Assembly (NCBI GenBank): GCA_963797555.1
Contig: CAWCPV010000007.1
Location: 480,001-544,000, forward strand
Origin: an uncultured Gammaproteobacteria bacterium
Lineage (GTDB): Bacteria; Pseudomonadota; Gammaproteobacteria; CAWCPV01
Length of the DNA: 64,000 bases
Direction: 5' to 3'
The translations under genes and the position numbers were made by a program. The number at the start of each line of letters is the position of its first letter. Position 1 is the stretch's first letter. A model generated the notes under the pieces. That model was not told the origin of the DNA and did not search any database. It saw only the letters and a program-made list of their open reading frames with translations. This document shows, in pieces, positions 51,901 to 64,000 of this stretch.

Positions 51901-52123
51901 CGGGCGGCGTCCGCCGCGCGGACGTGCGGACCCCACCGATTGCCGAAAGCCTCGACCTTGCAGAGGGCGCCGCTCGGTCCCCCGGCCAGATCGAGCGGCT
52001 GCCGCCGTCAACAGGGAGCGGCGCAGAGAGAGTGCGCAGCCGAGACGCACCCCACGGATTTTTTCACACGCTCCCGGCGCCGCCTGCGGCTCGCCGGATG
52101 ACTTCCGACGCGCCACGCGAGCC

Positions 52124-52393
52124 TCAGCGGACGTCGTTTTCGCCCGTGCGCTGCGCGAAGAGATTGTAAAGCCACGCAAAGACGAATCCGCCGACCGTTC
52201 CGTCAACGAAGGCCCAGGCCAGACCGATGACGCTGCCCAAGGGGCTTATGCTGTAGCCGCGGTAGATGCGCCCGATGAAGGTGATCTCTCCTGTGACGCC
52301 GTCGAAGGCGATGATCCACCAGGTCAGGAAGAACAGGCCCAAACCCCAGATAATCCCGCAGGCGAGCGCGAACGCTTTTGCATTGAGTTTCAT
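52124..52393 (-). CDS. small membrane protein (putative holin-like family)
   Basis: MKLNAKAFALACG...YRGYSISPLGSVIGL.WAFVDG...AWLYN; GGAGG ribosome-binding site. Confidence 0.65.
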   Translation of the reverse strand: MKLNAKAFALACGIIWGLGLFFLTWWIIAFDGVTGEITFIGRIYRGYSISPLGSVIGLAWAFVDGTVGGFVFAWLYNLFAQRTGENDVR

Positions 52394-52608
52394 CTCGACA
52401 CCTCCATGAAGCGGGTTATAGGACGAACGCCATCTTATCCGTCCAGCGCCTCCGCGGTGAGCTTTAAGTAGACCGACCGCAGGTCCGGAGGCGGACGTTT
52501 CGATTCGCCCGGGCCGAGGCAATAGCCTTGGCCCCGGCGCGCGGTGCCGTGTATCCTTGGCCCATCCTCAGGGGAAAACCGCGCGAAGACGCGGCTCGAA
52601 CAGGGAGC

Positions 52609-55285
52609 ATGGACGACTCGGCACCCCGCTATGATTTGTTCCTGAGCTACCACTGGCGCGACCGCCAAGCGGTCGAGTCGGTCGCGAAGGCGCTCACGGC
52701 GCGGGGGCTCAAGGTCTTCCTGGATCGCTGGTACCTCCCCGCCGGCCAGCCCTGGCCGCTCGCGCTCGAACAAGCGCTCGGCACCTGCCGCGCGGCGGCG
52801 GTGTTCCTCGGGCCGAACGGCGTGGGGAGCTGGCAGCAGCGGGAGAAGTGGCTCGCGCTCGACCGCCAGGCGCGGGAGCCGGGCTTTCCCGTGATCCCGG
52901 TGCTGCTGCCGCGCGCGGAGCAGCCAGCCCTGGAGTTCCTCTCCCTCAACACCTGGGTGGACCTGCGTGCCGCGCTGGACGATGCCGAGGCCCTGGACGT
53001 GCTCGTGCACGCCGCGCGCGGCGAGGCGCCGGGACCTACCCTGTCGGTGCGCCTGAGCGCCACGCTCGCGAGCATCGCCCCCTACCGCGGCCTCGGCGTG
53101 TTCCGCGAGGAGGACGCCCCCTTCTTTTTCGGCCGCGACGAGTTCATCGATCAACAGCTCCGGCCTACCGTCGAGGGGTGCTCGCTGGTCGCGGTGGTGG
53201 GGGCCTCGGGCAGCGGCAAGTCCTCGGTGGTCCGAGCGGGATTGCTGCCGCGGCTGCGCCGCGGCGAGGGCGGCAAGGTGTGGGAGATCGCGACCCTGCT
53301 CCCCGGCGACCGGCCGCTGCACGCGCTGGCCGCCGCCCTGCTGCCCTTGTTGGAGCCGGAGCGGGCCGAGCTGACCGAGACCGACCGGCTCGCCGAAGTG
53401 GGCAAGCTCGCCGGGCACCTCGCCGCGGGCACGGTGGCGCTGCGCGACGTGGTGGGTCGGGTGCTGGAGAAGCAGCTCGGGACCGAGCGCCTGCTGCTGG
53501 TCGCCGATCAGTGGGAGGAGCTTTACACGCTCACTCGGGAAAGCTCGGCTGCGCAGCGCTTCATCGAGGAGGTGCTGGACGCCACCGCCACCGCGCCGCT
53601 CACCGTGGTGCTGACCTTGCGCGGCGATTTCTTCGGCGAGGTGCTGGCGCACCGCGGGCTCGCCGATCGGCTGCAGGGCGGGGTCGTCAACCTGGGACCC
53701 ATGAATCGGGAGGAGATCGCGCAAGTGGTGGTGCGGCCGGCCGAGAAGGTCGGGCTCGCCTTCGAGCCGGGGCTGCCCGAGCGCATCCTGGACGAAGTCG
53801 GCGAGGAGCCGGGCCACCTGCCGCTGCTGGAGTTCGTGCTGACGGGGCTATGGCAGGACCGCCAAGCCGGCCGGCTGCTGCACGAGGCATACGATGCCAT
53901 GGGCGGCGTGCAGGGGGCGATGGCGCAGCGCGCGGAGGAGGTCTGGAAAAAGCTAGGTGAGCGTGAGGAGACCACGCTGCACCATCTCTTCCTGCAACTG
54001 GTCAGCGCCGGTGCGGGGACCGCGGACACGCGCCGACGTGCGGTACTCGCCGACCTTGCGCCCGCCGTGCGACCGGTGGTGGCGAAGCTCGCCCGCGAGC
54101 GGCTGCTGGTGATCGGGCGCGACGAGGCGAGCGGCGAGGAGACGGTGGAGGTCGCCCACGAGGCGTTGATCCGTCACTGGGATCGGTTGGGGAAATGGCT
54201 CGACGAGGACCGCGAGTTTCTGCTCTGGCGCCAGCGCCTGGAGGTAGCGCTCGCCCAGTGGAAACGTGCCGGCCGCAAGGACTCCGGCACCCTGCTGCGC
54301 GGGGCCCCGCTGGCCGAGGCCGAACGCTGGCTGGGGGAGCGTGGGGACGACCTGACCGAGGAGCAGCGCGCCTACGTGCGCGCGAGCCTCGCGGCGAGGG
54401 ACCGCCGCCGCTGGCTCACGGGAAGCGCGGCGGCGCTGGTCTTGCTCGCCTCTCTAGCGGTCGCCACCTGGCAGTATGGCGTGGCTGAGCGGCTGCGGCG
54501 TGAGCGGGCGCCGATCCCGCCCGCGATGGTCCTGATCGAGCCCCGCCCCTTCATGATGGGCTCCCCCGAGGGTGACAAGGAGGCACATCCCGATGAGTGG
54601 CCCGCCCACGACGTGGTGATCGCCAAGCCGTTCAAGATCGGCAAGTACGAGGTAACCTTCGAGGAATACGACCGCTTCGCGCTCGCCACCGGCCGTCGCC
54701 CGCCCAGCGACCAGGGCTGGGGCAGCGGCCAGCGCCCGGTGATCAATGTCTCCTGGGACGACGCCGTCGCCTATGCCCAGTGGCTGTCGAAAAAAAACCG
54801 GCCAGCGCTTTCGGCTGCCCACCGAGGCGGAGTGGGAGTATGCCGAGCGGGCGGGCAGCGTCACCGCACGCTTCTGGGGCGACGATCCGAAGCAGGCGTG
54901 CCGCTACGCGAACGTCTATGACAAGACGGGCGAGGCCGGAGGCAAGGAGAAATACGCGATCACCTGGGAGGCGCACGACTGCGAGGATGGCTTCGTCGAG
55001 ACCGCGCCGGTAGGTCGCTTTCAGCCCAACGCCTTAGTACTGTACGACATGCTGGGGAACGTCTGGGAGTGGGTGCAGGACTGCTGGCACGAGAGCTACC
55101 GTGACGATCCGCCGCGGGACGGCTCGGCCTGGCTGGAGGCTGATGGCGGCGATTGCGGTCGGCGCGTGGTCCGCGGCGGCTCCTGGAACTACGGACCGAG
55201 GGACGTGCGCTCGGCGGTGCGTGACAGGATACCGGCCGACTACCGGACCAACTACCTCGGTTTCCGCCTCGCCCAGGACTTGTAG
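52609..55285 (+). CDS. TIR + STAND NTPase (nSTAND1-like) + TM + FGE-sulfatase/C-lectin-fold protein; DGR target; frameshift in A8 tract at 54790
   Basis: DLFLSY..WQQRE (TIR); PYRGL..F, FFGRD, GASGSGKSS, DQWEEL, LPLLEF, AHEALI; TM helix; FMMGS, EVTFEEY, RLPTEAEWEY, DMLGNVWEW, RGGSW, GFRL. Confidence 0.88.
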
Positions 55286-55342
55286 CCCTTTGCTCTTTAT
55301 CCTTTTACCCTTTCGGGGGTCCAGGGGGCGGAGCCCCCTGGA
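55163..55342 (+). other. DGR variable region, pyrimidine tract and stem-loop
   Basis: RGGSWNYGPRDVRSAVRDRIPADYRTNYLGFR with NNC codons at usual Asn positions; C/T tract at 55286-55314; hairpin TCCAGGGGGC-GGA-GCCCCCTGGA (55320-55342). Confidence 0.78.
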
Positions 55343-55357
55343 GCGTCGGCTGAGCCG

Positions 55358-55632
55358 GTGAAGGACCTCACCCCCCACGCCGTGCAGTCCTGCCACGAGC
55401 TGCTGCTGTGGCTGCTGCCGCTGTTGGACAAGCTGCCTCGGGTACGGCGCTTCACGCTCGGGGAGCGCATCGAGAGCGCGCATCCTGGATGTGCTGGAGG
55501 CGCTCGTGGAGGCCGGCTACAGCGCCGGCGGGGCAAAGCGGACGGCGCTCAAACGGGCGAACCTGAGGCTGGAAGTGACGCGCCACCTCTGGCGCCTGTG
55601 CCACGAATCCCAGCTCGTATCCGCGCGGCGCT
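55358..55632 (+). pseudogene. avd: DGR accessory variability determinant (Avd), frameshifted and truncated
   Basis: HELLLWLLPLLDKLPR.RRFTLGERIE + LDVLEALVEAGYS...LKRANLRLEV.RHLWRL; final helix missing. Confidence 0.82.
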
Positions 55633-55857
55633 CTTCCCCCACCGACGGCGCGGCGTCATCGAATCTCAACTCCCCCCGGACCACGACGGTGGGCGAAGGC
55701 GCGCTCGGGCACCTATATACTACGTAGCAAGGACGCCCTCCGGGCCGGTTCGCGGCCGAAACTACCGGCTCGAAAACGTAGCGCAGCCTGGGCAGCGCCC
55801 GCGCGAGGCCCCAACGCAGCGAGGCCACCCAGACAGGTCTGCAACAAGGAGAAACGC

Positions 55858-57192
55858 ATGAACCGCCCCCTTTGCTTCGTCCTCATGCCCTTCGGCAAGA
55901 AGCCGGATGCCGGGGGCTCGGTGGTCGACTTCGACGCCGTCTACCGGGAGCTGATCGCCCCGGCCATTGAGGAGGCCGGGTTGGAGCCCCTGCGCGCCGA
56001 CGAGGAGATGACCGGCGGCATCATCCACAAGCCGATGTTCGAGCGCCTGATCCTCTGCGAGTATGCGGTGGCCGACCTCACCACGGCCAACGCCAATGTG
56101 TTCTACGAGCTGGGCGTGCGCCATGCGGTGCGCCCGTTCAGCACGGTCCCGCTATTCGCCGCAGGCGGCAGCCGCTTGCCCTTCGATGTGGCACCGCTGC
56201 GGGCGATGCCTTACCGGCTGACCCCCGAGGGCAAGCCTGCGGAAGTGGAGGCCGACAAGAAGGCATTGGTGGAACGTCTCGAAGCGGCCGAGCAAGAGGC
56301 CGCTACCGACAGCCCCGTGTACCAGCTCGTCGAGGGGTTCCCGGACGTCGACCACGCCAAGACCAACGTCTTCCGCGACCAAGTGCGATACGCGGCCGAG
56401 ACCAAGCAACGGCTCGCGGCGGCCCGCAAGCAGGGGGCCGAGGCGGTGCGGGCGGTGGAGCGGGAGCTCCGGGACATCCGTAACCAAGAGGCCGGCGTGG
56501 TGATCGACCTTTTCCTGTCCTACCGCGCCGTCAATGCCTGGGAGGACATGATCGCCCTGGTGCCGAAGATGTCTCCGGCACTCGCTCCCACCGCCATGGT
56601 GCAGGAGCAGCTCGCGCTCGCACTCAACCGTGCGGGGCGCGGGGAAGAGGCCGAGCGAGTGCTCCTCGACCTTATCCAGAGGCGCGGGCCGAGCAGCGAG
56701 ACCTACGGCATCCTGGGGCGGGTATACAAGGACCGCTGGGAGGCCGCAGCCAAGGCCGGTGATCGCTTCCTCGCCCGCGGGCTGCTGGACAGAGCGGTCG
56801 AGGCGTACCTCAAGGGCTTCGAGGCCGACTGGCGCGACGCCTATCCCGGCATCAACGCCGTCACCCTGATGGAGCTGAAGGACCCGCCCGACCCGCGGCG
56901 CGGGGCGCTCCTACCGGTGGTCTCCTACGCCGTGGAGCGGCGCATCGCCGCCGGCAAGCCCGACTACTGGGACCACGCCACCCGCCTGGAGCTGGCGGTG
57001 CTGGCCAGGGAGGAGCAGAAGGCGAAGGCAGCGCTCTCCGACGCGCTCCCTGCGGTGCGCGAGCCCTGGGAGCCCGAGACCACCGCGCGCAACCTGCGTC
57101 TGATTCGAGAGGCCAGGGAGGGGCGGGGGGAAGAGGTGCCGTGGGCGAGGGAGATCGAACGGGAGTTGGAGCGGCGATCGCAGCGGCGCTAG
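55858..57192 (+). CDS. DUF4071 / MAP3K TRAF-binding-like protein: nucleoside deoxyribosyltransferase-like N-terminus + TPRs
   Basis: CFVLMPFG, LRADEE, ADLTTANANVFYELGVRHA; LFLSYRAV.AW, ETYGILGRVYKD, YPGINAVTL, DYWDHATRLE. Confidence 0.82.
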   Translation: MNRPLCFVLMPFGKKPDAGGSVVDFDAVYRELIAPAIEEAGLEPLRADEEMTGGIIHKPMFERLILCEYAVADLTTANANVFYELGVRHAVRPFSTVPLFAAGGSRLPFDVAPLRAMPYRLTPEGKPAEVEADKKALVERLEAAEQEAATDSPVYQLVEGFPDVDHAKTNVFRDQVRYAAETKQRLAAARKQGAEAVRAVERELRDIRNQEAGVVIDLFLSYRAVNAWEDMIALVPKMSPALAPTAMVQEQLALALNRAGRGEEAERVLLDLIQRRGPSSETYGILGRVYKDRWEAAAKAGDRFLARGLLDRAVEAYLKGFEADWRDAYPGINAVTLMELKDPPDPRRGALLPVVSYAVERRIAAGKPDYWDHATRLELAVLAREEQKAKAALSDALPAVREPWEPETTARNLRLIREAREGRGEEVPWAREIERELERRSQRR

Positions 57193-57460
57193 TGCCCCAC
57201 AGCCGCGACCTCACTTAGCGCTCTGAGGGGATCGAGATCCCAGGTGCGCCAGCGTAACGCACCAGGCATACAGACCAAGGTCGGTTCGTTACGTTATGCT
57301 CGGGCGGTTGGCGCTGAGACGCCGACCAAGCTGCCAGAGCGCTCCGACGACAGGATATGAATGCGGTGCGTGGGCAGGCGCAGATGCGTCGGTCAGGTGT
57401 ACTTTGGGCACTTTATTGGGGCTGGATTGGGGCTGAGCGGGGAGTTTCGGCGGAGCATCG

Positions 57461-58111
57461 ATGCGGATCAAGAACGCATGTTTCATCAGCTATTGCCACG
57501 GTCAGAATGAGCTGATCAAGGGTTTCATCGAGCAGCTCTGTAGAGCACTCAAGAACTACCTGGAGCCGCTGATGGACGAGGGGGTATATGTCGATTACGA
57601 GCGGCTTCAGCCCGGTTACCGATTCAACGAAGCCCTGGCCAGAGATATTTGCGAGAGCGTTTGCATGATCGTGGTCTACTACCCCAGATACGAGCAGCAC
57701 TCGTATTGCCGGCGCGAGTTCGCGGCCATGGAGATCATGGAGGAGCACCGCAAGGCCCTACTGGGTGCCCACCTACATGGACGTGGCTTCATTATTCCGG
57801 TGATTCTCACTACCGGCGCTGACGGAGTCCCCGACAAGATCAAAGGTGCCCTCCACTACTCCGATTTCTCTGGGTGGACCCTTGCCAGCAGCGATATTAG
57901 CCGTAACCCGGACTTCATACCGGCCATTAAGGACATCTGCACAGCTATCCACGAGCTCTACGAGCTGCTGCGGCAGAAGATTGCCGCCGGAAATCAGCAT
58001 ATGGACTGCGTCGACTTCCGGGTTCCCGCTGAAGCCGACGCGCCGCCTTGGCAACACGGGGGGACAGTGCCTGGCCCATTGCCCTTTCCCGGCCGGAAGT
58101 CCGCCCCGTGA
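57461..58111 (+). CDS. stand-alone TIR-domain protein (FxsC-like)
   Basis: CFISYCH, LARDICESVCMIVVYYPRY..SYCRREF, IIPVI. Confidence 0.8.
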   Translation: MRIKNACFISYCHGQNELIKGFIEQLCRALKNYLEPLMDEGVYVDYERLQPGYRFNEALARDICESVCMIVVYYPRYEQHSYCRREFAAMEIMEEHRKALLGAHLHGRGFIIPVILTTGADGVPDKIKGALHYSDFSGWTLASSDISRNPDFIPAIKDICTAIHELYELLRQKIAAGNQHMDCVDFRVPAEADAPPWQHGGTVPGPLPFPGRKSAP

Positions 58112-60912
58112 AGCCAGCCATCGCGGGCGAGGTAATCACCTTCTATTCCTACAAGGGTGGTACGGGCCGCTCCATGGCGCTGGCCAATATCGCTTGCCTG
58201 CTTGCTGCCTCGAGTGCAGACGGCCGTGAGGTGCTTATAGTGGACTGGGATTTGGAGGCGCCAGGCCAGCACTGGTTCTTCCTCCGCTCGCAGCTTCCTG
58301 GGGCGAACGACGGATGGCGTGCGGCCGGGAGTGACGAGCGACCAGGGTTGATGGAACTGCTTGAGATGCTAGAACGCAAGGTGCCGAAGACCGATGCGGA
58401 GTCGGTCGTCGAGGCTGAAGCGCAGGCCGAGAAGCTATTTGAAGGCCTGTCGCTCGAAACCTACGTCACTCCGACGGCCTTTCCCAAAGTCCATTTGCTC
58501 AAGGCCGGACGGCTCGACTCGGGCTATCCAGAACGGGTCAACACCTTCGCCTGGGAGGGCCTCTACCGGCGTGCGCCGTACCTTTACCAGACCTTAGCCA
58601 GGCACCTTGCGGCGCGGTACCGCTACGTCATCATCGACGCGCGCACCGGGCTTGCGGACATGAGCGGGATATGCACGACCCTCATGCCGGAAAAGCTGGT
58701 CGTGGTGTTTACCCCTAATCGACAAAGCCTGACCGGTATGTCGGAGGTAATCAAGCGAGCTACCACGTACCGTCGCCGTTCCGACGACCTGCGGCCCCTG
58801 CTCGTCTACCCTCTGCCATCGCGCATCGATTCAGAGCGGGACGAGTTGCGCAAGCGTTGGCGGTATGGGGACTCCACGCATGGAGTCGACGGTTACCAGC
58901 CACTCTTCGAGCGGCTGTTCCAGAACGTCTACGGGCTGAAGCAATGCGACCTGGGGGCCTATTTCGATGAGGTGCAGATCCAGCACAGCCCCGATTACGC
59001 CTATGGTGAAGAGATCGCCGTCAACGTGGAGACGAGCGAGGACCGCTTTTCCCTCGTTAGGAGCTACAAGGCGTTGCTGGAATGGCTGGCCAACTCCTAC
59101 GCGCCTTGGGAAGGTCTGGAGCAGGCACGCGCGATCCGCGACCTCGGCGTACTGGAGGTGAAGGAGCGCGAGTTGCGGGCTCGGGCCGGGGCGGACGCCG
59201 AGGCGAGGCGCGAGCTAGCGTCGTTGCGAGAGGAAATCTTCACCCGCAAGGCAAAGTTAAAGGGCGAGCAGGATCCCGATACCCTGGCGGCAATGGACCG
59301 GCTGGCCCGAACCGTCTGGGAGCAAGGTGACTGGAACGCAGCGCGACGGCTGCAGGAGCAGGCGATCGAGGCCCGCCGCCGGGTGCTGGGCGAGGAGCAC
59401 CCCGACACCCTGACCAGCATGGGCAACCTGGCCGCGACGCTCCGGGCCCAGGGCGACCTCCCCGGCGCCCGCGCCCTTCAGGAAAAGGTCCTGGAGGTCA
59501 GCCGCCGGGTGCTGGGCGAGGAGCACCCCGACACCCTGACCAGCATGGGCAACCTGGCCGCGACGCTCCGGGCCCAGGGCGACCTCCCCGGCGCCCGCGC
59601 CCTTCAGGAAAAGGTCCTGGAGGTCAGCCGCCGGGTGCTGGGCGAGGAGCACCCCGACACCCTGACCAGCATGGGCAACCTGGCCGCGACGCTCCGGGCC
59701 CAGGGCGACCTCCCCGGCGCCCGCGCCCTTCAGGAAAAGGTCCTGGAGGTCAGCCGCCGGGTGCTGGGCGAGGACCACCCGGACACCCTGAGGAGCATGG
59801 GCAACCTGGCCGCGACGCTCCGGGCCCAGGGCGACCTCCCCGGCGCCCGCGCCCTTCAGGAAAAGGTCCTGGAGGTCCGCCGCCGGGTGCTGGGCGAGGA
59901 CCACCCAAACACCCTGACCAGCATGGGCAACCTGGCCTGGACGCTCCGGGCCCAGGGCGACCTCCCCGGCGCCCGCGCCCTTCAGGAAAAGGTCCTGGAG
60001 GTCCGCCGCCGGGTGCTGGGCGAGGACCACCCAAACACCCTGACCAGCATGGGCAACCTGGCCTGGACGCTCCGGGCCCAGGGCGACCTCCCCGGCGCCC
60101 GCGCCCTTCAGGAAAAGGTCCTGGAGGTCAGCCGCCGGGTGCTGGGCGAGGACCACCCGGACACCCTGACCAGCATGAACAACCTGGCCGGGACGCTCTG
60201 GGCCCAGGGCGACCTCCCCGGCGCCCGCACCCTTCAGGAAAAGGTCCTGGAGGTCCGCCGCCGGGTGCTGGGCGAGGACCACCCGGACACCCTGACCAGC
60301 ATGAACAACCTGGCCGGGACGCTCTGGGACCGGGGCGACCTCGCCGACGCCCGCGCCCTTGAGGAAAAGGTTCTCGAGGTCCGCCGCCGGGTGCTGGGCG
60401 AAGACCACCCAAACACCCTGACCAGCATGGGCAACCTGGCTGGCACGCTTGGGGCCCAGGGCGACCTCCCCGGCGCCCGCGCCCTTCAGGAAAAGGTCCT
60501 GGAGGTCCGCCGCCGGGTGCTGGGCGAGGACCACCCAAACACCCTGACCAGCATGGGCAACCTGGCCTGGACGCTCCGGGCCCAGGGCGACCTCCCCGGC
60601 GCCCGCGCCCTTCAGGAAAAGGTCCTGGAGGTCCGCCGCCGGGTGCTGGGCGAGGACCACCCAAACACCCTGACCAGCATGGGCAACCTGGCCTGGACGC
60701 TCCGGGCCCAGGGCGACCTCCCCGGCGCCCGCGCCCTTCAGGAAAAGGTCCTGGAGGTCCGCCGCCGCCTGCTCGGCCCTGAGCACCCCGACACACTTCG
60801 GGCAATGGCCCAGCTCGCCGAAACACTCGATAAGTCGGACGACAAGGCTGCCCTCGCCGCGCTGCAGAAAGAGATCATTGCCTCAGTACAGCGTTTGCAG
60901 AAAACGCCCTAG
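58108..60912 (+). CDS. ParA/MinD-like ATPase (KGGxGR variant) fused to a 42-aa TPR array
   Basis: ITFYSYKGGTGRSMALAN, VDWDLEAPG, YVIIDARTG; HPDTLTSMGNLA repeats; GTGA overlap with the TIR gene. Confidence 0.88.
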   Translation: MKPAIAGEVITFYSYKGGTGRSMALANIACLLAASSADGREVLIVDWDLEAPGQHWFFLRSQLPGANDGWRAAGSDERPGLMELLEMLERKVPKTDAESVVEAEAQAEKLFEGLSLETYVTPTAFPKVHLLKAGRLDSGYPERVNTFAWEGLYRRAPYLYQTLARHLAARYRYVIIDARTGLADMSGICTTLMPEKLVVVFTPNRQSLTGMSEVIKRATTYRRRSDDLRPLLVYPLPSRIDSERDELRKRWRYGDSTHGVDGYQPLFERLFQNVYGLKQCDLGAYFDEVQIQHSPDYAYGEEIAVNVETSEDRFSLVRSYKALLEWLANSYAPWEGLEQARAIRDLGVLEVKERELRARAGADAEARRELASLREEIFTRKAKLKGEQDPDTLAAMDRLARTVWEQGDWNAARRLQEQAIEARRRVLGEEHPDTLTSMGNLAATLRAQGDLPGARALQEKVLEVSRRVLGEEHPDTLTSMGNLAATLRAQGDLPGARALQEKVLEVSRRVLGEEHPDTLTSMGNLAATLRAQGDLPGARALQEKVLEVSRRVLGEDHPDTLRSMGNLAATLRAQGDLPGARALQEKVLEVRRRVLGEDHPNTLTSMGNLAWTLRAQGDLPGARALQEKVLEVRRRVLGEDHPNTLTSMGNLAWTLRAQGDLPGARALQEKVLEVSRRVLGEDHPDTLTSMNNLAGTLWAQGDLPGARTLQEKVLEVRRRVLGEDHPDTLTSMNNLAGTLWDRGDLADARALEEKVLEVRRRVLGEDHPNTLTSMGNLAGTLGAQGDLPGARALQEKVLEVRRRVLGEDHPNTLTSMGNLAWTLRAQGDLPGARALQEKVLEVRRRVLGEDHPNTLTSMGNLAWTLRAQGDLPGARALQEKVLEVRRRLLGPEHPDTLRAMAQLAETLDKSDDKAALAALQKEIIASVQRLQKTP
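59392..60777 (+). repeat. 11 x 126-bp near-identical coding tandem repeats (TPR)
   Basis: Unit E(E/D)HP(D/N)TL(T/R)SM(G/N)NLA(A/W/G)TL(R/W/G)AQGDLPGARALQEKVLEV(S/R)RRVLG; 1386 bp. Confidence 0.97.
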
Positions 60913-61302
60913 CCGACAGCGCCTGAGTGCCGGGGCATCATCCGCGGCGGCCTGACGAAACAGTGCGTCCCTCAGCTCGATGGGGTGGATGTGGGCGGCC
61001 CTGGCCTCGGGATTCACGACCAGCACTCGACACCTCGGATCGCCCTCGCGGCTTGTGGCGAGAAAGCCCGCCGTCGGCTCCCACTGGCAGGCGCGGGAGC
61101 GCGCGTAGTGCTCGGAGTAATAGGCGAACACGGCCTTGGAATTGGCGATGCCCTCGACGATGGCGCGGGTGATGCTGGAGTAGTCCCGGATGTCGCTCTC
61201 GTCCTGCCAGACCGCCAGGCCGGAGGCTCGCAGCGCCTCGACGATGGGACGCACCGCGCCCCGGTTCTTGTGCGGATAGCTGAGGAATAAGTCACAGGAC
61301 AT
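60883..61302 (-). pseudogene. TIR-domain N-terminal fragment of a larger gene
   Basis: DLFLSY, LAVWQDE, YSEHYARSRACQWE; runs into the convergent TPR gene end. Confidence 0.7.
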
Positions 61303-61359
61303 CGCGGACTCTTGGCTGTGCATGCAGCGCGGGCCGCCGTTGGATCGAAGCCGACGGTC

Positions 61360-61803
61360 TCAGGGAGCCAGCAACCGATGCTTGACGCTGAGGGAAGCGG
61401 CCGATCGGGCCAGCAGTACATCGCAGGTCACCAGCACGGCGCCCAGCGCATGTGCACAGGCGAGGTGCAGTGCATCCAGGGTGCGCAACGGTGTCATCCG
61501 GGCGAGCAGCCAGCGCTCTGCCTGCCGATAATGGCGTGCATCGAGCGCAACGACCCGAAAGCAGCCGCTCTCCAAATCCTCGCGGTAGGCGGATTCGACT
61601 TCTGCGGCCTGAGCGGGGGTCAATTCACCCATTCGCACCCATCGGGCCAGTGCCGAGGCAAGCTCGATCTGGGTCAGGAGGGTCAGCAGCGCCGGGCGGG
61701 TCAACGACATCAACAGCGCCTGCACAGCATCACTCACGGCCTCCTCACGGTAGTAAGGCAGCAGCGCGCTGGTGTCCAGGTACAGCTCCTCAGTAGCGCT
61801 CAT
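61360..61803 (-). CDS. vapC: VapC PIN-domain toxin
   Basis: YLDTSALLPYY, ELASAL, LRTLDALHLA, LVTCD. Confidence 0.9.
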   Translation of the reverse strand: MSATEELYLDTSALLPYYREEAVSDAVQALLMSLTRPALLTLLTQIELASALARWVRMGELTPAQAAEVESAYREDLESGCFRVVALDARHYRQAERWLLARMTPLRTLDALHLACAHALGAVLVTCDVLLARSAASLSVKHRLLAP

Positions 61804-62032
61804 CCTCTCTCAGACCGCGTACGATCTCGGCGCTGGTGATCTGGCTGACAGGTAGCCGCTGGCGGAACGCCCGCCGGTCCGGAAAGCACACGCCCTGCGG
61901 CTGTGGAGCGATAGCCACCAGGCGTGCTATCGCTTTGCCGCGGCGCTCGATGACGACCTCCTCGCCAGCCTCGACGGCATCCAGAAGCCGGCCTATCTGG
62001 GCCCGCAGTTCGCGGATATTGACTACGTGCAT
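61790..62032 (-). CDS. Phd/YefM-family antitoxin
   Basis: VNIRELRAQIGRLLDAVEAGEEVVIERRGKAIARLV. Confidence 0.9.
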   Translation of the reverse strand: MHVVNIRELRAQIGRLLDAVEAGEEVVIERRGKAIARLVAIAPQPQGVCFPDRRAFRQRLPVSQITSAEIVRGLREDERY

Positions 62033-62047
62033 CGTGTCCTCCCCGGA

Positions 62048-62069
62048 ATGTACACCGAGCAGTGTACAT
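62048..62069. promoter_or_regulatory. palindromic operator upstream of the TA pair
   Basis: ATGTACAC-CGAGCA-GTGTACAT. Confidence 0.65.
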
Positions 62070-62122
62070 GCACTAACGGCGGATTGCCGGGGGCCGACGA
62101 CAGCGTTCTGGCAAAAGCTTGC

Positions 62123-62146
62123 GGCGGCAAGGGGTTGCCGCCCTAA
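62123..62146 (-). repeat. REP-like hairpin
   Basis: GGCGGCAA-GGGG-TTGCCGCC followed by CTAA (a variant GTAG foot on the minus strand). Confidence 0.5.
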
Positions 62147-62239
62147 AGGCTCCGCGGAGTCATGTCTCGTCGATCTGAGGGCCTCGCCAGCGCGATGCTT
62201 GCGACGTGTACCGACTTACGGACTCGATGCCGCAGCTAC

Positions 62240-62418
62240 CAGGACGAGCAGAAGGCGATACCGGCGCTCGCGGACGCGCTGGCCGCGGTGCGGAGCCCTG
62301 GGAGCCCGAGACCACCGCGCGCAACCTGCGGCCCATCCGAGAGGCCAGGGAGGGGCGGAGGGACGACGTACCGTGGGCGAGGGAGATCGAGGGGGAGTTG
62401 GAGCAACGGGCACGGTAA
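62240..62418 (+). pseudogene. diverged copy of the DUF4071 gene 3' end
   Basis: Matches about 57007-57192 (EPWEPETTARNLR.IREAREGR...VPWAREIE.ELE.R). Confidence 0.9.
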
Positions 62419-62632
62419 TAACTAAGTCTTTGCGGCTGGCACATCGCTGAAAGGATGCTGCGTTACTCGACGTACGCCGGCAAGAAACACGATACTGCGG
62501 ACTTCAGCACGGCTCGATTATCATAAACGGTGCGCCCTCGGCTTTTTGTGTGAGTCCAACTGCGAAGGGTCCGCAGAGGCTCTTGCAGGCCAGCCATGTC
62601 AAAATCACTGCTCCGTAGGTGGGGTTACGTGC

Positions 62633-64000
62633 GTGCAGCACCCTGATCACTTCGAGTGGGACGTGTTCCTGAGCTACAGCCATGCGGACAAGCCGCGAGT
62701 TCTCCGTCTGGCCGAAAGGTTGCGCGATGCCGGGTTGCACGTTTGGCTGGATGACTGGGTAGTCCGGCCCGGCGATGACTTCAATCTTGCAATACAAGAG
62801 GGGCTTCAGCGCTCCCGGCGGCAGGTGTTCTGCATTTCGAAAGAATCGGTCGAATCTGACTGGGCCCGCGCTGAGCAGAATAGCGTTCTTTTCCGGGACC
62901 CTCTCAACCGCGAGCGCCGGTTCATACCGTTCTTTTGGAAGACTGCGGCATACCCGATTTCGTCGGGCGCTTCCATCGTGTCGACCTCCGCTCGGAAACC
63001 GAAGAGGCATGCCGCCAGCCCATCGACGCCTGCTCACCGGCACATTACGGGACCATGGCCGCAAACGCGCCAGGTACCGCGACTCGGGAGGAGCTTGACG
63101 TCCTTCGCGACAGGTTCGCCCATGCATCGCAGGACCTCCTCCGCTGGCCCGCATCTCTCCCCGGAGGCACATGGTTGGAGCGGCCGGAGCTGGACGATAT
63201 CCTGCGCTCGATCGAAACCACACGATCCTCCTTGACCCTTCTGCTCGGTGAACCAGGGGGCGGCAAGTCGGCCCTGTTGGCCCGCCTTGGTGCGCTTCTC
63301 CAGGAGCGCGCTATAGCCCTGCTGGCGATCAAGGCTGACTTCCTGCCCAGCAACGTCCTGACGCTCTCGGATCTGTCGACCTATCTGCAGTTTCCCGTCA
63401 CGGTGGACCGGGCATTCCCACTGCTCGCAGCCCAAGGGCCCGTGGTGCTCCTCGTCGATCAGCTCGATGCCTTGGCCGACATGGTGGTGCAGCATGCAGA
63501 GCGCCTGAAGCCCCTGCTCGAACTCATCGAGACTCTCGCTGAGATCGATACCGTCCATATCGTGGCATCGTGCCGTACCTTTGAGCACCGCCACGATCCA
63601 CGCCTGCGGAGCCTTGCTGCGGAGCCCCTGCAACTCTCCCTCCCTGGCTGGGAATCTGTGGCGTCCACATTGCGCCATTGGGGTATCGAAGCAGGAGCCT
63701 GGAGCGCTTCGATCCGCGAAGAACTCCGTAGTCCTCACGTATTGGCGCTGTTCCTCGACTTGCTGAAAGACAGGCACGAAGCGCACGTGCTCTCTTGCTA
63801 CCAGGCGATGCTGGATACCCTCTGGCAGCAACGGGTGCTGCACGACACGACCGGGGCACGACGCCAACTGCTATTCGACATGGCGGAACAGATGGCCGAA
63901 CGAGAGACGCTATGGTTGCCGTTGGCGATGTACGAGGACCGGCGGGAGACGGTTCACGCGCTGGCGCGCGATGGAATCCTCACCACGGACGACGCGGGTC
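62633..64000 (+). CDS. TIR + STAND-type ATPase (Avs-like), frameshifted, runs off the window
   Basis: DVFLSYSHADK...SDWARAE..LFRDPLN; in another frame WLERPEL, LLGEPGGGKSALLA, LLVDQLDAL, VASCRTFE. Confidence 0.75.

Follow-up and report, generated by a model that had tools for sequence, protein, structure and literature searches.

The two genes at positions 57461 to 60912 of a 64,000-nucleotide (nt) stretch of DNA from an uncultured gammaproteobacterium (assembly GCA_963797555.1, contig CAWCPV010000007.1, positions 480,001 to 544,000; the whole stretch is hereafter called the window) very probably form a TIR-ParA dyad, in which a small stand-alone TIR protein is encoded directly upstream of a ParA/MinD-like nucleoside triphosphatase (NTPase) ending in an array of tetratricopeptide repeats (TPRs). 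The class is described and is known from computation: a preprint, used here in part of its text, surveys ParA in immunity by computational means (Li, Burroughs, Aravind, 22 Oct 2026, bioRxiv 10.64898/2026.10.19.760177) and defines 'TIR-ParA apoptosis systems' by an active upstream TIR (TIR-FC, the TIR of FxsC) together with a ParA carrying variable sensors. According to the logic proposed there, a signal from the sensor reaches the ParA switch, and this sets off the destruction of NAD+ by the TIR; the ParA clade concerned (ConB2) is marked by an Arg that replaces the Walker A Lys and by a PG motif following DxD. On balance, we favour reading the window's locus as a two-gene immune module of this kind (abortive infection or 'apoptosis'), belonging to the ConB2 clade in a subtype with a short TIR and a ParA followed by TPRs only, and probably working by the stepwise mechanism set out below.

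All the sequence-level traits by which that text delimits the class are found at the window's locus. In both, the upstream gene codes for a TIR with its active-site Glu (here a TIR_2 protein with E86 and a TIR fold of the NADase type), the NTPase has the MinD/ParA fold with the signature Lys (K16), the Arg P-loop (R21) and PG after DxD, and the order is TIR then ParA on a single strand; the variable C-terminal sensor of the class is represented in the window by 13 TPR units. Section 25 of the preprint names STAND-fused, ligand-binding and receptor-like subtypes in its text, and its figures or supplements may show more; the form seen in the window, a ParA with TPRs alone beside a short TIR without the FxsC-C domain and with no TIR-FT, goes unnamed in the text of that section. 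The preprint text likewise gives no binding model for the dyad, and one is predicted here. An earlier interpretation of the window, made from the letters alone and referred to below as the sequence-only reading, had proposed an NLR (nucleotide-binding, leucine-rich repeat)-analogous sensor/effector pair with a ParA/MinD (SIMIBI) switch, and had put it forward as an undescribed defence system. The first proposal is supported by the conservation of the pair, its invariant residues, the complex model and the ParA-nSTAND1 fusions without a STAND core that are described below. The word 'undescribed' fails, because the preprint defines the class with the same ParA-for-STAND switch model, and the ATPase is already catalogued as NF047398; since the locus has every sequence-level trait of the class, the earlier inference is essentially the published hypothesis. 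The features of the locus are as follows.

57461..58111, plus strand: stand-alone TIR gene, 216 amino acids (aa), a short form of the 'TIR-FC' type without the FxsC-C domain (translation and Pfam).
58094..58098, plus strand: Shine-Dalgarno-like GGAAG, 9 nt 5' of the GTG and within the end of the TIR gene (putative role).
58108..60912, plus strand: ParA(Arg-P-loop)-TPR gene, 934 aa from GTG 58108, in a frame open from TTG 58048.
58108..59142, plus strand: predicted ParA/MinD-fold module, residues 1-345 counted from the GTG (NF047398, AlphaFold2, Foldseek).
59143..59241, plus strand: charged helical linker from the ParA module to the first TPR unit, with no Pfam family there (putative role).
59242..60879, plus strand: TPR_10/TPR_12 array, 13 units of 42 aa (Pfam TPR_10 and a table of the units).
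59368..60767, plus strand: DNA-level tandem repeat, 126 bp x 11.1 copies, 95% match (repeat analysis and unit table).

The TGA stop of the TIR gene (58109-58111) overlaps the in-frame GTG at 58108 of the ParA-TPR gene within the tetranucleotide GTGA (58108-58111), an overlap already pointed out in the sequence-only reading, and the two genes are translationally coupled. This GTG is the likely start of the ParA-TPR gene, because in the alignment the relatives begin about 6-20 residues before the motif GE(I/V)ITFYSYKGG. A scan for promoters and terminators found nothing above the shuffled expectation. The GC content of positions 57000-59000 is 59-62%, against 68-73% on both flanks. As to the occurrence of this DNA elsewhere, four soil-metagenome DNA runs from a single study contain at most 0.23 of the stretch's sampled words, no other run has part of it, and no RNA run is listed among those that do.

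The strongest evidence for a functional unit is the conservation of the pair. Related loci were taken as the best 80 of 596 confirmed stretches, found with a profile of the ParA module in one-genome-per-species contigs, and were searched with local hidden Markov models built from the sequences of this analysis. A TIR gene lies directly upstream of the ParA gene, on the same strand, in 73 of these 80 loci, so that the pairing exceeds chance, and the co-conservation that a tabulation of neighbours had been suggested to check does hold. No upstream TIR was found in L059, L064, L070, L079, L082, L085 and L086, two of which (L079 and L082) have almost no upstream DNA. According to automatic start calls, the distance between the two genes ranges from -4 to +30 nt in 51 of the 73 loci, with a stop/start overlap of 4 or 1 nt in 15; a larger overlap is called in 19, most likely reflecting start codons placed too far upstream, and a gap above 30 nt in three. 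The upstream protein is of the window's type, with about 200-290 aa, in 53 closer loci, and reaches about 390-440 aa in 20 distant ones that include Actinomycetota. The pair is conserved in at least 12 phylum-level groups, the phyla among the related loci being Acidobacteriota, Armatimonadota, Bacteroidota, Cyanobacteria, Chloroflexota, Planctomycetota, Nitrospirota, Verrucomicrobiota, Desulfobacterota, Myxococcota, Actinomycetota and Pseudomonadota. Among the flank matches listed, no third conserved gene was found beside the ParA-TPR dyads, and flanks are common only within Oxalobacteraceae; the exception to these differing flanks is a TPR-S-type gene located near both the window's dyad and that of L016.

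The sole Pfam match of the 216-aa upstream protein is TIR_2 (E 1.1e-10, residues 8-139). Its YCRREF motif, in which the sequence-only reading had recognized the Glu expected for catalysis, contains the putative catalytic residue E86, which is invariant together with F8, S10, D45, S66 and Y77 in 33 aligned upstream TIRs; in a broader local alignment (54 sequences), the conservation of E86 is at least 95%. The conserved C-terminal tail includes a nearly invariant P210. The AlphaFold2 model of the protein, with a mean pLDDT (predicted local distance difference test) of 87.2, is matched in Foldseek by the TIRs of SPARTA TIR-APAZ, RUN1, RPS4, MyD88 and AbTir, and places E86 early in a long helix (81-105), a position that we take to be the catalytic Glu site of plant TIRs. 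The best NCBIfam match is NF040588 FxsC_Nterm, with 40.8 bits against a cut-off of 130. The TIR is likely to be an NAD-destroying executioner.

The partner protein begins with a ParA module of about 335 aa, continues with a helical linker of about 45-60 aa and then enters the TPRs, which are thus C-terminal, as had been noted earlier, but do not follow the ATPase directly. Residues 28-237 match the NCBIfam family NF047398 ('KGGVGR-motif variant AAA ATPase') with 121.7 bits against a cut-off of 90, and no other protein of the genome exceeds that cut-off; there are also weak N-terminal matches to AAA_31, CbiA, ParA and MinD. No NB-ARC, NACHT, nSTAND or other STAND domain is matched by Pfam in this protein at E <=0.01, and both this and the deviant Walker A agree with what had been seen in the letters. 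The module contains KGGTGRS (K16, R21) where the canonical housekeeping Walker A would be KGGxGK[ST], then DWDLEAPG (D46, D48, P52, G53) and the Walker B/switch II motif IDARTG (D177). All 80 related loci have Arg at the canonical P-loop Lys position, and all 80 have DxDxxxPG; KGGxGR[ST] is present in 119 of 120 listed database matches. Residues K16, G17, G18, G20, R21, D46, D48, A51, P52, G53, D177, R179 and G181 are invariant in 33 ParA sequences, and a further, clade-specific motif, YRRRSDDLRPLL, occupies residues 221-232 (general form YRRxSDDLRPL) in the predicted TIR-binding surface. Conservation of the module is unusually high: across differing architectures, the ParA modules are 49-54% identical and share dozens of invariant residues.

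The AlphaFold2 model of the module (pLDDT 89.5) retrieves MinD, MinCD, ParA, Soj and McdA in Foldseek, with E values of 1e-9 to 1e-8, target template modelling (TM) scores of 0.64-0.74 and a probability of 1.00, and in a profile search of the PDB the sequence-level match to solved MinD/ParA structures is limited to the first ~45 residues, in the P-loop region. Because structural matches to MinD/ParA thus go along with a sequence match confined to the P-loop, the module is predicted to have a SIMIBI MinD/ParA fold, enlarged by about 90 residues and lacking a close relative among solved structures. It is far from rare: a query with residues 21-400 identified at least 3398 database proteins at E <=0.001 among 8000 scored candidates. 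In the 18 database matches whose domains were scanned, the ParA module is always N-terminal, and what follows it includes TIR, TIR-PASTA, TIR-FGE, TPR-NACHT-FGE, TPR-Roc-COR-TIR, FGE, part of nSTAND1, a nucleotide cyclase, CHAT, TPR-S or TPR alone.

A similar variety is seen among the related loci. In 17 of the 46 closest, the ParA module is followed by TPR_10/12 only, as in the window, each time with a TIR of 201-218 aa upstream; these TPR-only loci were found in Duganella, Rugamonas, Janthinobacterium, Pseudoduganella, a Sulfuritalea metagenome-assembled genome (MAG) and a betaproteobacterial MAG. The other closest loci carry one or more TIRs (7 of 46), the C-terminal part of nSTAND1 with TPR, WD40 or LRR (6), WD40 only (2) or an F5/8-type lectin-like domain (1), have the ParA module alone (4), or give no Pfam match after it (9). 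Among the 34 more distant loci are those of the FxsT type (ParA-TIR-NB-ARC-TPR, ~1300 aa) and forms with pYEATS, pentapeptide or TPR-S domains. The C-terminal domains across relatives thus include TPR, WD40, LRR, PASTA, pYEATS, FGE and STAND.

A direct contact between the two proteins is predicted by a 1:1 model that pairs the ParA module (345 aa) with the TIR (216 aa), each supplied as a 33-row alignment. The median of the interface score ipSAE is 0.73 (0.73, 0.71 and 0.80 in three runs), and the best of three controls gave 0.00; the ipSAE mark for comparison, reached by 116 of 157 solved complexes and by 2 of 215 mismatched pairs, is a rough guide here, own alignments having been used. Agreement between the runs extends to at least 91% of contacts, and the partner pLDDT is at least 77. 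No similar solved complex was found in the profile search of the PDB, which makes recall of a known complex unlikely. On the ParA side, the predicted interface comprises residues 149-158, 184-192 (the helix right after IDARTG), 217-232 (with the invariant YRRxSDDLRPL), 274-278 and the C-terminus; on the TIR side, it comprises 16-22, 74-80 (with the invariant Y77), 116-122, 137-151 and the tail at 204-212, with the nearly invariant P210. This prediction, another of the checks suggested beforehand, supports direct binding of the TIR to the ParA module.

The third part of the system, the TPR array, is matched by Pfam TPR_10 with E 1.7e-202 in 12 stretches. Of its 13 units, the first and last are degenerate and 11 are near-identical, some down to the nucleotide (unit 2 is identical to 3, and units 5, 6, 10 and 11 to one another). 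Codon differences from the unit consensus are nonsynonymous in 33 cases and synonymous in 12, and amino-acid variation centres on unit position 23 (A/W/G), followed by positions 13, 3, 10 and 26. Arrays at the DNA level occur in only two of the 17 TPR-only relatives, L016 (7.4 copies, 87%) and L026 (8.3 copies, 86%), and the window's array is the most recently amplified among those compared. The pattern would be expected for a sensor under rapid remodelling. The number of repeats has to be read with the assembly in mind, since short-read contigs are unable to span a 1.4-kb array at 95% identity.

STAND NTPases are the foundation of NLR-type immunity in bacteria, plants and animals, and bacterial TIR-STAND proteins have the same three-part logic as the dyad, an effector TIR, an NTPase and a repeat sensor (an example within the window is the TIR-nSTAND1-FGE gene at 52528-54921). 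The difference lies in the NTPase, which is of the AAA+-type STAND kind there and of the predicted SIMIBI MinD/ParA fold in the window's dyad, and in the effector, which is here a separate polypeptide. In all 11 ParA-nSTAND1 fusions seen here (L008, L010, L011, L018, L031, L033, L056, L057, L063, L083 and one further protein), the nSTAND1 match covers only profile positions ~254-378 of 379 and starts right after the ParA module. The 10 fusions from loci align to about residues 459-655 of the window's TIR-nSTAND1 protein, downstream of its P-loop (residue 225), and a second P-loop motif is absent in nine of them, L011 having one within its WD40 region. Because the match covers only the C-terminal part of nSTAND1 and nine of 10 fusions have no second P-loop, ParA seems to replace the STAND NTPase core in these proteins rather than being added before a complete STAND module. 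NACHT and NB-ARC fusions of ParA retain an NTPase of their own.

The mechanism that we favour would proceed in five steps. The TIR and the ParA-TPR protein would form a resting complex (step 1), until a protein or peptide derived from an invader is bound by the TPR solenoid (step 2). Binding would permit the ATP-dependent dimerisation or multimerisation of the ParA module, for which the signature Lys16 is kept; with an Arg P-loop, hydrolysis is probably slow or absent, so that the 'on' state would be long-lived (step 3). The TIRs would then be brought together, or released into the self-association required for NADase activity (step 4), and the resulting NAD+ depletion would lead to the death or arrest of the infected cell (step 5). 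A more specific proposal, held tentatively and judged possible rather than probable, is that the Arg-P-loop ParA genuinely serves, instead of a STAND NTPase, as the central switch in NLR-like immunity: it would pre-bind the TIR via YRRxSDDLRPL and the helix following switch II, and gate it by ATP-dependent dimerisation, and in the nSTAND1-derived relatives it would have physically taken the place of the STAND NTPase core, the downstream helical domain and the sensor being kept. Confirmation would make it the first NTPase of the SIMIBI class for which control over a TIR NADase is demonstrated.

Several points weigh against the immune-module reading. The complex score is the model's own confidence and no measurement, and the 80 loci are the closest matches and no random sample. 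About 18 of the 80 are from Oxalobacteraceae, and the six of these that were compared share flanking genes at 60-97% identity, so that they represent a single inheritance event. The class is reported to be enriched in multicellular bacteria (10.64898/2026.10.19.760177), and the host here seems, from its GyrB, to be an uncultured soil gammaproteobacterium. GyrB is matched at 54-71%, best by MAGs of uncultured Gammaproteobacteria, and GlgX at only 54-65% by proteins of many phyla, while rpoB is absent from the assembly, which places the host only loosely. The text of that preprint contains no NADase, ATPase, binding or phage-protection data, and Kaur et al. 2020 (PMC7159879), in the part of that paper considered here, describe the MinD/ParA-like domains of such systems as predicted inactive. 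For the ATPase, PADLOC yields no more than a weak partial match to PDC-M28B, and for the TIR nothing specific. Finally, the term 'switch' may be too strong, because the Lys-to-Arg change in the P-loop may abolish hydrolysis.

This last point leads to the main rival, which is rather unlikely in our judgement: the ParA module would bind nucleotide without hydrolysing it, as a scaffold or adaptor tethering the TIR to the sensor, with activation through ligand-driven clustering of the TPR arms. The Arg found for the P-loop Lys at every related locus, the inactivity predicted by Kaur et al. 2020 and the adaptor-like occurrence of the module before very different C-terminal domains would fit such a role, as would the predicted direct binding of the TIR. 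However, the other nucleotide-binding residues (the dimer-forming Lys16, DxD and the Walker B Asp) are invariant, and a pure scaffold needs none of them; moreover, the predicted contact with the TIR includes the helix right after switch II. A different question is what the TIR does with NAD+. Bacterial TIRs that deplete it and those that make signals share the same Glu and fold, and the TIR model is matched by TIRs of both kinds, so that the protein could generate an ADP-ribose (ADPR)-derived messenger, as in Thoeris, for an effector encoded elsewhere, instead of depleting NAD+ in bulk. We consider this improbable: only the dyad is conserved, the flanks differing among the window, L016, L026 and Oxalobacteraceae, and neither a ThsA-like, SLOG or SIR2 gene among the neighbours nor a ThsB match at E <=0.01 in PADLOC was found.

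A role outside immunity, either in developmental or kin-directed cell death or in the positioning of a complex by the ParA-like ATPase, would be in line with the positioning function of classical ParA/MinD ATPases and with the ties of the class to a multicellular habit (10.64898/2026.10.19.760177). It seems very improbable at a locus that shows a local drop in GC content and has TIR, STAND, TPR-S and toxin-antitoxin genes clustered around it, where the sensor repeats were recently amplified and vary at few positions, and in a family whose C-terminal domain variety is typical of conflict systems. Least credible, and already largely refuted, is membership in the FxSxx-COOH (FxsABCT) peptide-modification system. 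It is suggested by the NCBIfam model NF040586 FxSxx_TPR, which the ParA-TPR protein matches with 511.5 bits against a cut-off of 300, by FxsC_Nterm being the best NCBIfam match of the TIR, and by the Actinomycetota relatives, which are true FxsT proteins. The best stretch of the NF040586 match (residues 502-806, profile 433-739 of 830) lies, however, in the TPR repeats only, so automatic annotation could mislabel the ParA-TPR gene as FxsT; FxsC_Nterm stays far below its cut-off, and the best match to FxsB (TIGR04269) in the genome, which is 84.6% complete, is on another contig and reaches 39.2 bits where the cut-off is 370. Neither a radical SAM gene nor a precursor gene was found among the neighbours or above cut-off in that genome, FxsA having been given no separate search.

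With respect to known systems, the dyad resembles these FxsC/FxsT pairs of Actinomycetota (NF040588, NF040586), in which a TIR gene also lies directly upstream of an Arg-P-loop ParA that ends in TPR_10/12. FxsT has the architecture ParA-TIR-NB-ARC-TPR and about 1300 aa, whereas the window's partner has neither TIR nor NB-ARC, and FxsC has about 400-440 aa with a second domain, against 216 aa for the window's TIR. FxSxx-COOH membership was rejected on these grounds (FxsC_Nterm below cut-off, a partner without TIR-FT or NB-ARC, no FxsB above cut-off), in agreement with the sequence-only reading, which had seen no precursor or radical SAM gene and had treated FxsC/FxsT as relatives and not as the same system. 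Thoeris was rejected too, given a TIR without a ThsB match (PADLOC, E <=0.01) and no ThsA-like neighbour. The PADLOC check that had been called for matched no known system, with the reservation that the ParA region has a partial match to PDC-M28B (E 4.1e-16, residues 28-237 aligned to positions 129-318 of the 438 in the profile); PDC-M28 was rejected, its gene B being matched only in part and PDC-M28A not at all by the TIR. In the literature searched, the name PDC-M28 is unexplained in print, and 'KGGVGR' likewise returned no relevant paper.

MinD-MinE, ParA-ParB and other deviant Walker A ATPases regulated by a partner have the same fold as the dyad's ATPase, with the signature Lys, the DxD and the Walker B motif in common, and the small partner is likewise predicted near switch II in the dyad; the window's module differs by its Arg P-loop, its ~90 predicted extra residues, the motif YRRxSDDLRPL and a partner that is a TIR enzyme. 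TA-ParA systems, which combine ParA-TPR with a type II toxin-antitoxin pair as presented in the text of 10.64898/2026.10.19.760177, have a ConB2 ParA-TPR in common with the dyad, and the window does have a Phd/YefM-PIN pair 450 nt downstream. This pair, however, converges on the dyad from the opposite strand and has its own TIR gene after it, whereas the gene co-transcribed with ParA is the TIR.

A widespread family switched by MinD/ParA-like NTPases would show that the design of sensor, switch and executioner is independent of the fold of the switch. The window's locus suits a first test of the class because few forms are simpler: it consists of two genes, has a single type of sensor and lacks a second NTPase. 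What is new here is a predicted interface with residues to mutate, a recently amplified TPR array with signs of rapid remodelling, and near relatives in cultured Oxalobacteraceae (Duganella, Janthinobacterium, Rugamonas, Pseudoduganella).

The genes adjacent to the dyad are as follows.

55858-57192, upstream of the dyad: MAP3K_TRAF_bd/TPR-S gene.
60883-61323, minus strand: gene for a 146-aa TIR protein, convergent, with a 30-nt overlap with the 3' end of the ParA-TPR gene.
61360-61803, minus strand: PIN-domain toxin.
61790-62032, minus strand: Phd/YefM antitoxin.

The Phd-PIN pair and the TIR gene that follows it may be a module of their own. Farther downstream, a stand-alone TIR gene (62546-63235; PADLOC PDC-S66, E 1e-16) overlaps a STAND NTPase that starts at 62935 and runs off the window (PDC-M54A, E 6e-11), and the two may form a further TIR-STAND pair. 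On the other side of the dyad, the TIR-nSTAND1-FGE gene (FGE being sulfatase-modifying-factor-like) is split by a change of frame at 52528-55285, into open reading frames (ORFs) 52528-54921 and 54746-55285: the match to FGE profile positions 3-110 stops near 54792, and that to positions 110-254 continues from about 54803 in the other frame. It is a frameshifted gene or an assembly error.

Three more ORFs, 55358-55861, 61312-61839 and 61836-62450, have no family match and a composition like that of a wrong frame, and the last two were taken as non-genes because the PIN and Phd genes lie there on the opposite strand. ORF 55358-55861 (167 aa) overlaps the start of the TPR-S gene, and its residues after the first ~40 resemble wrong-frame sequence; these first ~40 residues recall what we take to be the start of Avd-type four-helix-bundle proteins of diversity-generating retroelements. 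With the settings chosen, the search of 52000-64000 gave no template/variable repeat pair.

In L016, the gene that immediately follows the ParA-TPR gene downstream is TPR-S-like. In the window, a direct repeat of 164 nt with 87% identity (57009-57172 and 62242-62404) flanks the 5.2 kb that contain the dyad and the minus-strand Phd-PIN-TIR genes. The copy on the left coincides with the 3' end of the TPR-S gene, and the one on the right is a frameshifted remnant of the last ~60 residues of a TPR-S-type protein (80% identity over 41 aa). The repeat could reflect an insertion with target duplication, or be the relic of a second TPR-S gene.

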